From an uncultured Methylophaga sp. (GTDB taxonomy: Bacteria; Pseudomonadota; Gammaproteobacteria; Nitrosococcales; Methylophagaceae), in assembly GCF_947259025.1 (NCBI RefSeq), contig NZ_CAMYKO010000007.1:23945-87944 (forward strand): DNA of 64,000 bases, read 5' to 3'. Shown here piece by piece: positions 1 to 30,663 of the stretch. The notes under the pieces are model-generated. The model saw only the letters and a program-made list of their open reading frames with translations. It ran no database searches and was not told where the DNA came from. A program made the translations under genes and the position numbers. Every line of letters starts with the position of its first letter. Within the stretch, counting starts at the first letter, position 1.

Positions 1-1292
1 ATGGCGATAGCTTCTTTGGCGGGCTGAACCTGGCTGGCGTCCCACGGTGGCACATCTGCCGTGACGGCTTGTAACGCCTGCTGTTTGATATCGTCGGCAG
101 CGGCGCGCGCAAACACCAGACATTCCAGCAAAGAGTTACTGGCCATGCGATTAGCACCATGCAGGCCGGTATGCGCCGTTTCACCCACCGCATAAAGACC
201 GGGGATATCGGTACGGCCCTGTAAATCAGTCATGATGCCGCCGCAGGTATAGTGGGCAGCCGGCACCACCGGCACCGGTTCTCGGGTCATATCTATCCCC
301 AGCGCCAGGCAGCGTTTGTAGATGGTCGGGAAATGGCTTTTGATAAAGGTAGCCGGTTTGTGCGAAATATCCAGATACACACAATCGTGGCCCAGTCGTT
401 TCATTTCATGGTCAATTGCGCGTGCCACCACATCACGCGGCGCTAGTTCGCCACGGGGATGGAAGCGCTGCATAAAGCGCTCGCCGTTGGCCAGCAGCAG
501 CCTGGCACCCTCACCGCGCAATGCTTCGCTGATCAGAAATGATTTTGCCCTGGGATGAAAAAGGCAGGTGGGGTGGAACTGGACGAACTCCATATTGGCC
601 ACCCGGCATCCGGCACGCCAGCCCATTGCGATGCCATCGCCGGTCGATACATCCGGATTGCTGGTATAGAGATAGACCTTGCCGGCACCGCCGGTGGCCA
701 GCACCGTGACCGGAGCCAGAAAAGTTTTGGTTTCATCTTTTTCGATATCGAGCACGTAGCAGCCCAGCGCCTTGTTAAGCGTTTCCTTGAGATGTTTCTG
801 ACTTGTGATGAGATCAATCCCGATATGGTAGGGAAACAGACTGATGCCGGGATGGGCCTTGGCCTTGTCCAGCAACGTGGTCTCAACTTCGCGACCGGTG
901 GCATCGGCTGAGTGAATAATGCGGCGATGACTGTGACCGCCTTCCCGGGTCAAATGATAGGTTTCAGAAGTGACGCCGTCGCGGGTAAAGGTCACGCCCT
1001 GGTCAATCAGCCACTCAATATTTTCCCGGGCATGCTCCACCGTATAGCGCACGGCTTCCTCGTTGCACAAACCGGCGCCGGCGAGCAGGGTGTCATCAAT
1101 ATGTGACTGAATAGAATCAGTTTTATCCAGCACCACGGAAATGCCGCCCTGGGCATACAAAGAGGCGCCTTCATCAAGTTGTCCCTTGGATATGACCGCA
1201 ACACGGGCATGGTCTGCCATGTGCAAAGCCAGTGTCAGGCCGGCGGTGCCACTGCCGATAATCAGAATGTCAAACTGCTGTGTTGTGGTCAT
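1..1292 (-). CDS. nadB: L-aspartate oxidase, partial (3' end lies beyond window start)
   Basis: Translated by hand: ATG at 1292 gives MTTTQQFDILIIGSGTAGL (FAD-binding GxGxxG); later HYTCGG and GLHGANRMASNSLLEC; divergent from rpoE as usual. Absent from the ORF track because no stop codon lies in the window. Confidence 0.95.
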   Translation of the reverse strand, partial: MTTTQQFDILIIGSGTAGLTLALHMADHARVAVISKGQLDEGASLYAQGGISVVLDKTDSIQSHIDDTLLAGAGLCNEEAVRYTVEHARENIEWLIDQGVTFTRDGVTSETYHLTREGGHSHRRIIHSADATGREVETTLLDKAKAHPGISLFPYHIGIDLITSQKHLKETLNKALGCYVLDIEKDETKTFLAPVTVLATGGAGKVYLYTSNPDVSTGDGIAMGWRAGCRVANMEFVQFHPTCLFHPRAKSFLISEALRGEGARLLLANGERFMQRFHPRGELAPRDVVARAIDHEMKRLGHDCVYLDISHKPATFIKSHFPTIYKRCLALGIDMTREPVPVVPAAHYTCGGIMTDLQGRTDIPGLYAVGETAHTGLHGANRMASNSLLECLVFARAAADDIKQQALQAVTADVPPWDASQVQPAKEAIA

Positions 1293-28098: not shown

Positions 28099-28179
28099 AA
28101 TCTGCCTCGTTGCATGGGTGGTGGTCCATCTTAATGAAACGGGCCGGCAAAAGGCAATCGAGGGCTTTGATGTTTATTT

Positions 28180-28205
28180 TGTAACGTTTGGTGTTTGAGA
28201 CCGTC
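28180..28205 (+). promoter_or_regulatory. ECF-sigma-type promoter of the bufferin cluster
   Basis: TGTAAC-N16-CGTC, about 90 bp upstream of the first precursor. Confidence 0.5.
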
Positions 28206-28294
28206 GACACTGTAGGGAGGCGCCCCCCTACTATCATCATTAACGGCCCAGGCTGTGAGTGATGCTCGAAACCTTAATGATAGAAGGGAGTGAT

Positions 28295-28558
28295 ATGAAT
28301 AAATTGAAAACAACAACGGGACTGGCCCTGGCCGTCGCTGCAGCGGGATTGATGGGCTGTACGGCAAACCAGGCAAACACCAGTCAGGCCAGTGCCCAGG
28401 AAATGGTGCATTGTCACGGCGTTAACAAATGCGCCGGTCATAACGACTGCAAAACGGCAGATAATGCTTGTGCCGGGCAGGGGGCATGTAAAGGCCAGGG
28501 GTTTGTCACCATGTCTGCCAAAGCCTGTGGTGATGTCGGCGGCGAAGTCGGCAGTTAA
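28295..28558 (+). CDS. BufA2-like Cys-rich RiPP precursor 1 (probable lipoprotein)
   Basis: GGGAG RBS; signal ending LMG-C; core [33 protein letters not shown]; adjacent to DUF692. Confidence 0.8.
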
Positions 28559-28593
28559 TTTACTTTCGTCGCTGGACGAATAAGGAGACAAAC

Positions 28594-28926
28594 ATGAAAA
28601 AATCAACCACAGCAACTGGCGTGGCTTTGGCCTTTGCCGCAGCGAGCATGATGGGCGCTGCCACGGTTAATGCCGCACCGAGTGAATCCGCCAACGTGCA
28701 TTGTTACGGCGTCAATGTCTGTAAAGGCCATAACGACTGTAAAGTATCCGGTAATGCCTGTAAGGGGCAGAATGATTGCAAAACGGCCGATAATGCCTGT
28801 AAAGGTCAGGCCGATTGCAAAACAGCAGGCAATGCCTGTGCCGGTCAGTCTTCATGCAAAGGACAGGGCTTTGTTGCCATGTCAGCAGAGGCCTGTGATC
28901 AAATTGGTGGTACAGTCGGTAAATAA
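28594..28926 (+). CDS. BufA2-like Cys-rich RiPP precursor 2 (repeat-expanded)
   Basis: GGAG RBS; Sec signal ending VNA; core HCYGVNV + 3 x CKGxxDCKxxxNA + [13 protein letters not shown]. Confidence 0.82.
28720..28836 (+). repeat. Three imperfect 39-bp (13-aa) in-frame tandem repeats
   Basis: Units 28720-28758, 28759-28797, 28798-28836 encode [39 protein letters not shown]. Confidence 0.9.
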
Positions 28927-28993
28927 GCCGATAGGTCATCGACTTCATGTCGCTGTTGCGGCATGAAGTCGATCATCCTTTTAAGGAGCGCTT

Positions 28994-29863
28994 ATGACAC
29001 GTCCGTTTCTGGGATTCGGTCTTGGCTTGAGGACCGATCATTACCAGCACATTATTGAACATCAGCCACCGATCGACTGGTTTGAAATCTTGTCTGAAAA
29101 CTATATGGTGCCGGGCGGTAAACCGTTAGCTAACCTCGACAGAATCCGTCAGGATTACCCCATGGTGATGCACGGGGTGTCGATGTCGATAGGTAGTACC
29201 GATCCACTTAATACCCGCTATCTGGATAAGCTCAAGGCATTGATTGAGCGGGTTGAGCCTGCCTGGGTTTCTGATCATCTGTGCTGGACCACGGTGGATC
29301 ATATCAACAGTCATGATTTGCTGCCGTTGCCGTATAACGAGGCGGTGATAAAGCACATTGTTGATCGCATACAGGCGGTGCAGGACTATATCGGTCGCGA
29401 GATCCTGATCGAGAACCTGTCCAGTTATGTGACTTATCACAGCTCGGAGATGAGCGAATGGCAATTTGTCAACGAGATTGCCCGTCGCAGTGGCTGTTTC
29501 CTGCTGGTCGATATCAATAATATTTTTGTCAGTGCCAATAATCATCACTTTGATCCGCGTGACTACATCAACGGCATTGATCCGGATCGGGTCATGCAGT
29601 TTCATCTTGCCGGGCATAGCTATCATGGCGAGATGATTATTGATACCCATGATCATCCGGTGTGTGAGTCAGTCTGGGATCTCTATCAGTATGCGCTGGA
29701 GCGCTATGGCGCCGTCAGCACGATGATAGAGCGGGATGACAACATTCCTCCCTTTGCGGAACTGCATGAGGAACTGACTCGGGCTGAGACTATAGCCCGC
29801 CGGACATTGACCGCAGAACAACTGGCGATCAACAGCGGCCGGATGATGCAGGGAGTTGCCTGA
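28994..29863 (+). CDS. DUF692 multinuclear non-heme iron oxidative enzyme (BufB-like)
   Basis: GFGLGLR, WFEILSENY, HGVSMSIG, SDHLCW, ILIENLSSY, DINNIFVS, HLAGH, DTH, IERDD. Confidence 0.92.
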   Translation: MTRPFLGFGLGLRTDHYQHIIEHQPPIDWFEILSENYMVPGGKPLANLDRIRQDYPMVMHGVSMSIGSTDPLNTRYLDKLKALIERVEPAWVSDHLCWTTVDHINSHDLLPLPYNEAVIKHIVDRIQAVQDYIGREILIENLSSYVTYHSSEMSEWQFVNEIARRSGCFLLVDINNIFVSANNHHFDPRDYINGIDPDRVMQFHLAGHSYHGEMIIDTHDHPVCESVWDLYQYALERYGAVSTMIERDDNIPPFAELHEELTRAETIARRTLTAEQLAINSGRMMQGVA

Positions 29864-29865
29864 CA

Positions 29866-30663
29866 ATGGAGCTGAGGAGTTTACAGCAGCAGTTCCTCTA
29901 TCACCTGCTGGGTGAGTCAACCGGGTTGGAGAAGGTGATCGAGTCAACCCCGATGATGTCCGCCCGCGACCGGCTGAATATCTACGCCAATGGCTACCGC
30001 ATGCGGTTAAAAGAAGCGCTGCAGACCGACTTCGACAAACTCCACAGTTATCTTGGTGACGCGCAGTTTGATGCTTTGATGAATCGATATATCGACACCC
30101 ATCCATCACACACCACCAGCCTGCGTTATTTCAGTATTGCATTAGCGGAAATGCTGGCACAGGAATCACCTTACAGCGAACATATTGAGCTCGCGGAGCT
30201 GGCAAAGATTGAGCAGGCATTCGCCAACAGCTTTGATGCTGGCAATGCAGCCTGTTTGTCTCTGGAACATTTTGCTTCAATTCCTGAACAGGCCTGGCCG
30301 TCGTTACAGTTGACGATGCAACCTTCGCTGCAAATTATTGCTTGTTACAGCAATGCGTTTGCTATCTGGAAAGCCTTGTCTGCCGGTGAGCCGCCACCTG
30401 AAGCACAGCATCGTGATGAGGTTGAATACTGGGTGGTCTGGCGTCGTCCAGATCTGATTAGCCATTATCGACCTTTAGCGTTTGCCGAATATACCGCGCT
30501 CAAATCCATGTCTGAAGGGGACAGCTTTGCTGAGCTCTGCGAGCAACTGCTGGACTTGTTTTCGGAGACAGACACACCCATCAAGGCGATTGGCTTTTTA
30601 CAATCCTGGGTGCAGGAAGATATGCTGGCCGGGTTGGATTACGACGGTATTAACGCGACTTGA
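29866..30663 (+). CDS. DUF2063 partner protein (BufC-like, RRE/DNA-binding-like)
   Basis: LQQQF..HL, RLNIYANGYRMRL..AL, ELAKIEQA; directly after DUF692. Confidence 0.85.
   Translation: MELRSLQQQFLYHLLGESTGLEKVIESTPMMSARDRLNIYANGYRMRLKEALQTDFDKLHSYLGDAQFDALMNRYIDTHPSHTTSLRYFSIALAEMLAQESPYSEHIELAELAKIEQAFANSFDAGNAACLSLEHFASIPEQAWPSLQLTMQPSLQIIACYSNAFAIWKALSAGEPPPEAQHRDEVEYWVVWRRPDLISHYRPLAFAEYTALKSMSEGDSFAELCEQLLDLFSETDTPIKAIGFLQSWVQEDMLAGLDYDGINAT

Follow-up and report, generated by a model that had tools for sequence, protein, structure and literature searches.

How many thiooxazoles can a single bufferin scaffold carry, and how many copper ions does it gain thereby? This question is raised by a locus from an uncultured Methylophaga sp., which we analysed within a stretch of 64,000 nucleotides (assembly GCF_947259025.1, contig NZ_CAMYKO010000007.1, positions 23,945 to 87,944; hereafter the window, to which all coordinates refer). 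Bufferins form a very large and recently recognised class of copper-detoxifying modified peptides. Thiooxazole conversion and copper binding are known only for Buf1 and Buf2 of Caulobacter (PMC11626156). Buf1 contains two thiooxazoles and binds Cu in a 1:1 ratio; coordination is 2N2S and the affinity femtomolar or tighter (PMC11626156). In Buf2, modification spares CysI and CysVI, which are probably linked by a disulfide, and a loss of 4 Da at each of the central four cysteines is consistent with 5-thiooxazoles (PMC11626156). Six cysteines are found in 90% of Buf2 precursors (PMC12452194), and published surveys report only 6-Cys and 12-Cys forms. The window encodes a Buf2 precursor with ten, which corrects the generalisation that these precursors have either 6 or 12 cysteines.

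Two precursor genes were found in tandem on the + strand. The first, bufA2a (28295..28558), encodes an 87-aa protein with seven cysteines, six of them core residues and one belonging to an LMG-C lipobox. The second, bufA2b (28594..28926), encodes a 110-aa protein with ten core cysteines and a Sec signal of the signal-peptidase-I type (MKK, a hydrophobic core and VNA/AP), both signals being judged by inspection. With 80.1 bits for bufA2a and 110.2 bits for bufA2b, both products score above the 60-bit cut-off of NCBIfam NF050166 (BufA2 family periplasmic bufferin-type metallophore), in agreement with the original prediction that both genes encode BufA2-type bufferin precursors. The match of bufA2b is split between profile positions 2-60 and 37-78 because of inserted units. 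Indeed, where bufA2a has a single unit (28430-28468), bufA2b has three 39-bp units spanning exactly 28720-28836, each encoding CKGxNDCKxxxNA. Unit 1 (28720..28758), unit 2 (28759..28797) and unit 3 (28798..28836), all on the + strand, were delimited with Tandem Repeats Finder and by unit comparison, with homolog signatures as further evidence; that of unit 1, CKGHNDCK[VI]xGNx, is kept in 28 proteins. The segment ahead of unit 1 ends with VHCYGVNV. A terminal degenerate unit (28837..28875, + strand), found in all BufA2 proteins and having its counterpart at 28469-28507 in bufA2a, runs into the C-terminal scaffold. Tandem Repeats Finder reported the array at 28714-28839 with a period of 39, 3.2 copies, 75% matches and a score of 133. 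Unit pairs differ at 9-11 of 39 bases (copies 72-77% identical), and each pair shows 4-5 synonymous and 2-4 non-synonymous codon differences. The claims that ten rather than six core cysteines come from three units rather than one, and that the 39-bp repeats contain many synonymous differences, thus hold, the predicted coordinates matching the unit boundaries exactly.

The ten cysteines of the bufA2b product (spacing 6,6,7,6,7,6,7,6,13) lie within one domain, a count unlike the six per domain, or 12 where the domain is duplicated, by which BufA2 proteins are recognised. Seven of the eight central cysteines are followed by a lysine, forming Cys-Lys dyads. The protein keeps the first cysteine, the last cysteine and the flanking scaffold of BufA2. 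Since its deviation is a loop expansion, we count bufA2b as a variant inside the BufA2 family, not as a non-member.

Downstream of the precursors, bufB (28994..29863, + strand) encodes a 289-aa MNIO-family bufferin maturase (NF050167, 393.1 bits for a cut-off of 310; PF05114, 371.6 bits) and bufC (29866..30663, + strand) a 265-aa DUF2063 partner protein (PF09836, 69.5 bits for a cut-off of 27.2), whose match to the HvfC family is weak (33 bits). Based on the NF050166, NF050167/PF05114 and PF09836 matches and on the gene order bufA2a-bufA2b-bufB-bufC, all on the + strand, the locus is assigned to the buf2-type clusters. No DoxX gene was found among the adjacent genes scanned, and the cassette is flanked by genes for a zinc-dependent alcohol dehydrogenase (adh) and a DUF1841 protein. 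The locus resembles Caulobacter vibrioides Buf2 (bufA2-bufB2-bufC2, CCNA_03001-02999; Buf_6/12Cys, NF050166) in HMM membership, Sec signal, precursor/MNIO/DUF2063 order, lack of a DoxX, sigma or anti-sigma gene in the cluster, conservation of the first and last cysteines and presence of Cys-Lys motifs in the loop. Unlike Caulobacter Buf2, it contains two tandem precursors, a lipidated one-unit form and a soluble three-unit form, and the latter has eight central cysteines instead of four, with the 13-residue unit tripled. A profile search of the 2.70-Mb genome revealed it as the sole BufA2 locus. The second MNIO of this genome belongs to an HvfB/HvfC pair (451 and 312 bits; C5:677480-678244 of the window's genome, G000, locus L109), a pair kept throughout the genus. 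It has no EGKCG-type precursor beside it; directly upstream lies a gene for a 251-aa secreted protein without NCBIfam match.

To what extent are such precursors exceptional? HMMER was run exhaustively against 1.84 billion representatives clustered at 50% identity and yielded 753 family members, of which the best 150 were tabulated. Core cysteines numbered six in 122 of these 150, 12 in seven and ten in four. In keeping with the original prediction, three units are hence not the common BufA2 type and six cysteines are the rule. The four 10-Cys representatives among these best 150 of 753 comprise two of the Methylophaga-type clade, one of Methylotenera type (P0147) and one further protein, P0170. 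In P0170, which is rich in His and has 10 Cys, two extra CKxHGKCGQNG units of 11 residues are present, an evidently independent expansion. The Methylotenera (betaproteobacterial) form, a three-unit lipoprotein also encoded at L026:2920-3264, has its own unit signatures and a long BufB branch; this expansion, too, looks independent. Neither a two-unit form nor one with at least four units was detected among these 150 representatives or among the closest 120 of 1740 homolog clusters, with the exception of an odd 8-Cys BufA2 protein (P0246), which may be truncated.

A similar picture emerged at the genome level. BufA2 scored above the cut-off in 86 of 401 genomes, consisting of the window's own and 400 others drawn evenly from the same class, and of these only the window's own gave the split hit that marks the three-unit form (0 of the 85 other BufA2-positive genomes). 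Within GTDB species genomes, the three-unit form was encountered in Methylophaga and other Methylophagaceae genomes and MAGs, a Cycloclasticus sponge symbiont, a Piscirickettsiaceae MAG and one Methylotenera MAG. These surveys show the three-unit form to be rare. It occupies a conserved site in the chromosome and belongs mostly to Methylophagaceae, Cycloclasticus and their relatives. The bufferin papers and supplements searched nowhere mention a Buf2 with ten cysteines and an expanded loop. A "10 Cys" row in the supplement of PMC12452194 was considered as a prior case of Buf2 and rejected, as this row covers unclassified precursors. The ten-cysteine loop-expanded BufA2 has apparently not yet been described.

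The expansion also differs from the other known route to a raised cysteine count in a BufA2 precursor. 12-Cys Buf2 proteins (e.g., WP_077285100 of Cognaticolwellia aestuarii, Fig. 3h of PMC12452194) are common in marine Gammaproteobacteria (58 of 80 loci) and double the whole six-Cys domain together with its scaffold, giving two clasps with four central cysteines each. bufA2b instead expands the loop of one scaffold, with a single clasp and eight central cysteines. Three 12-Cys BufA2/BufB loci of gammaproteobacterial type (L049, L050 and L083) were found in MAGs labelled as a Halobacteria archaeon, a Myxococcota and Chitinophaga pinensis. The BufB protein of the first is nearly identical to one from a gammaproteobacterial MAG, which makes binning contamination or mislabelling likely.

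Tandem repeats of 39 bp are prone to slippage, and the array could in principle be a recent product of replication slippage, or an assembly artefact, devoid of function. The age of the repeat speaks directly to this. Among 5.8 billion clustered proteins, 1740 relatives were retrieved. The nearest 120 of them fall into three classes: proteins of about 110 aa with ten core cysteines, of about 84 aa with six, and of about 150 aa with 12, the last being whole-domain duplications. The repeat aligns gap-free over 27 three-unit homologs (down to about 51-62% identity), and all ten cysteines are invariant or nearly so, P0007 alone being without one. This 110-aa protein, encoded on a 927-kb contig, is a natural three-unit variant in which the loop cysteine at position 75 is replaced by glycine, leaving nine. 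The units carry distinct signatures that recur from species to species: CKGHNDCK[VI]xGNx for unit 1, CxGxNDCKTAxNx for unit 2 and CKGQ[AS]xCKTAGNA for unit 3. Since identity is higher at the same position between species (0.78) than between positions within a protein (0.58-0.66), the units are orthologous by position and have not evolved in concert. For the 39 codons of the repeat, dN/dS lies at 0.04-0.17, dS being saturated or close to 1. The expansion is common to at least 10 species-level genomes and about 20 metagenomic clusters. These comparisons show an old expansion maintained by purifying selection: the taxonomic spread, the position-specific signatures and the low dN/dS all bear out the original prediction, which had favoured an old and retained expansion over recent slippage. 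Copies that are merely 72-77% identical, the recurrence of three units with equal position-specific signatures across numerous independent assemblies, at protein identities as low as about 62%, and dN/dS values far below 1 refute recent slippage or misassembly, which we regard as hardly credible even though a one-step 78-bp indel (see below) separates two related loci.

The history of the cassette itself is one of patchy retention. BufA2 and BufB are both below the cut-off or absent in 24 other species of the same genus. In the two closest genomes (G022 and G023, loci L107 and L108), adh and the DUF1841 gene are adjacent, about 78 bp apart, and the buf cassette (28099-30663) is missing. Such a pattern is what a fresh horizontal insertion would leave, an explanation that we rejected, as the cytc-adh, buf cassette, DUF1841-nth arrangement is equally found at nine other Methylophagaceae loci. 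Given this shared synteny, the cassette is ancestral at the adh/DUF1841 site and was patchily lost.

Phylogenetic analysis of BufB grouped the ten gammaproteobacterial three-unit loci in one clade (98/86), which includes a one-unit locus, L015. When a second one-unit locus, L110, was added in a BufB+BufC tree, two sister pairs were recovered, the window with L015 (97/98) and L005 with L110 (100/100), each joining one three-unit and one one-unit locus. Since three units are found in 10 of the 12 clade members, one gain followed by two contractions to one unit is the most parsimonious history, and probably the true one. Outside the repeat, the window protein is 83-85% identical to other three-unit proteins versus 69% to the one-unit protein of L015. 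Between L005 and L110, one uninterrupted in-frame indel of 78 bp is seen, with ends within repeated TGT-AAA-GG codons, which shows that a single step can add or remove two units. Such a change may explain the absence of a two-unit form. The first half of unit 3 resembles the terminal unit, an "AABB" pattern suggesting that 13 residues were duplicated on two occasions; the L005/L110 alignment is just as compatible with a 78-bp event in one step. Unit number is thus evolutionarily labile, yet only one-unit and three-unit states were seen in the lineage. This qualifies the proposal that the bufferin is "tuned by repeat number": two states do exist at an orthologous locus but they form no graded series, so that tuning is weakly supported. 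The full set of eight loop cysteines appears to be dispensable, since P0007 is without one of them and two lineages are back at one unit.

Loci of this clade also vary in how the precursors are partnered and anchored; in the BufA2 family at large, the share of members with a lipoprotein signal is about 16%. A lipidated one-unit precursor accompanies a soluble three-unit one in the window, L004, L008 and L012, and two lipidated one-unit genes accompany a soluble three-unit gene in L005. A lipidated three-unit precursor is found alone in L006 and L009-L011, and together with a soluble one-unit precursor in L007. The lipidated three-unit precursors (L006, L007, L009, L010 and L011) form one clade (100/99). 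Their signal and linker are like those of the lipidated one-unit paralog and their C-terminus is like that of the soluble three-unit paralog, which faintly suggests, the segments being short, a fusion by unequal recombination between tandem genes.

What would the additional cysteines do? The BufA2 class corresponds to the "Cys-Lys" group of precursors, with HNDCK/NACKG motifs (PMC13097082), and the added cysteines of bufA2b copy the NDCK and NACKG contexts of the family. Because these contexts are repeated and all four central cysteines of Caulobacter Buf2 are modified (PMC11626156), modification of the extra ones, or a gain in metal sites through them, as the original prediction of a multivalent bufferin had it, is plausible. 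By analogy with Caulobacter Buf1 and Buf2, eight thiooxazoles instead of four, and up to four copper sites instead of two, are a reasonable expectation. We consider it likely that bufA2b encodes a soluble periplasmic BufA2 bufferin with a triplicated loop unit, converted to eight thiooxazoles by one BufB/BufC pair and offering up to four copper sites; within this reading, modification of all eight cysteines, copper stoichiometry and a role in copper stress are drawn by analogy. The product would be exported through Sec and remain soluble in the periplasm as a bufferin. It would keep the scaffold, with the first cysteine on an N-terminal beta-strand and the last on a short C-terminal helix, this pair probably forming a disulfide clasp, and the loop inside the clasp would present eight cysteines where the usual form has four. 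The single downstream BufB/BufC pair would act on both precursors, turning the loop cysteines into 5-thiooxazoles iteratively. With two thiooxazoles per copper in a 2N2S arrangement, as in Buf1, up to four copper ions could be held versus two in the one-unit paralog. The operon would then deliver a lipid-anchored bufferin of low capacity and a soluble one of high capacity.

Structure prediction informs this model only in part. In two AlphaFold2 runs, made with 27 and 55 sequences, mean pLDDT for bufA2b was 46 and 51.6. Both runs recovered E35-38, E93-96, H98-103 and E107-109 with pLDDT of only 65-72, and pLDDT was below 50 over the whole expanded loop. The AlphaFold check proposed with the original prediction therefore recovers scaffold elements around the first and last cysteines but no confident structure for the expanded loop, giving no geometry in support of four discrete sites. 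Low confidence of this kind is to be expected of a loop bearing many modifications and folding around metal.

A loop with pLDDT below 50 is also compatible with a structural role for the four extra cysteines, which could form added disulfides, or persist as plain thiols, and stiffen the longer loop while the thiooxazole and copper counts stay at the six-Cys level. Some bufferin cysteines are indeed unmodified and form disulfides (PMC11626156), and minor species of Buf1 and Buf2 with an extra labile S-S between modified residues have been reported. We nevertheless regard this alternative as unlikely, for the added cysteines are exact copies of the NDCK/NACKG contexts of the Cys-Lys class (PMC13097082) and position-specific conservation covers the lysine and glycine beside each cysteine, not the cysteine alone. 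Such conservation fits enzyme recognition better than simple disulfide pairing.

The geometry of the bound metal could differ as well. The regular C-x5-C-x6 spacing, repeated four times in a flexible loop, would suit a polynuclear Cu(I)-sulfur cluster wrapped by the eight modified cysteines, as in metallothioneins or Csp proteins, and providing cooperative, high-capacity storage. Large bufferins have been speculated to act as metal reservoirs (PMC11626156), and beta-helix models of EGKCG repeat precursors, with inward-pointing cysteines, have been likened to copper storage proteins (PMC12452194). The sole coordination solved in the family, that of Buf1, is mononuclear 2N2S, and we hold such a cluster to be quite improbable. 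Were it to exist, the thiooxazole-bearing loop would be a ribosomally made, enzyme-modified, periplasmic functional analogue of metallothionein, an idea that we consider decidedly doubtful, and the repeated switching between one and three units at the locus would be the outcome of selection acting, in marine methylotrophs and hydrocarbon degraders, on the capacity to buffer copper.

Returning to the mononuclear, thiooxazole-based reading of bufA2b, iterative conversion of short cysteine repeats has a parallel in the EGKCG-repeat captophorins (oxazolin/HvfA, fontiphorin FonA and Microbulbifer MmrA/bulbicupramide), which also combine an MNIO with a DUF2063 protein and a variable number of short Cys repeats. 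Each repeat cysteine is converted in these peptides (seven thiooxazoles in fontiphorin; 5-8 Cys in MmrA) and repeat number varies between strains. They differ from bufA2b by membership of another precursor family (Lys-Cys instead of Cys-Lys), repeats of 5 or 17 residues, an MNIO of the HvfB subfamily and the lack of a disulfide-clasped folded scaffold. The window provides a natural matched set, with one-unit and three-unit precursors under a single BufB/BufC pair and one-unit orthologs in the sister genomes of L015 and L110. Such a set is well suited to tests of iterative MNIO processing and of the scaling of metal stoichiometry with unit number.

Finally, two putative regulatory elements were identified. 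A perfect 16-bp hairpin (28938..28973, + strand; -33.4 kcal/mol, z = -5.7), detected in a scan for terminator-like structures, lies between the bufA2b stop codon and the ribosome-binding site of bufB. Hairpins with perfect stems of 12-17 bp are found between the last bufA2 gene and bufB at related loci in every case (L004-L012, L015, L026, L028, L045, L077 and L079). Their sequences are unrelated between loci, and several are followed by a T-run. The element is a probable attenuator or mRNA-stabilising structure and looks as if it would set the precursor-to-enzyme ratio. That its position is kept across loci suggests an operon built for more precursor than enzyme.

Upstream of the cassette, a candidate ECF-type promoter, TGTAAC-N16-CGTC (28180..28205, + strand), was recognised in an alignment of the regions preceding 9 syntenic loci, in which TTGTAAC and GTC.A are the sole invariant blocks. 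In its -35 core the candidate is similar to the sigmaF site of Caulobacter, GTAACC-N16-CGAA, which drives the buf operons there (PMC3511200). [quoted passage not shown] Both the motif and the lack of NrsF set the locus apart from Caulobacter Buf2. An rpoE-rseA pair is located at 1422-2569 of the window. A second exact match to TGTAAC-N16-CGTC occurs at 70-95, antisense within nadB (3-1292, minus strand), and is identical to the buf site at 21 of 26 positions. With 0.22 matches expected and two reached in 2 of 100 shuffles, this second match is probably due to chance.
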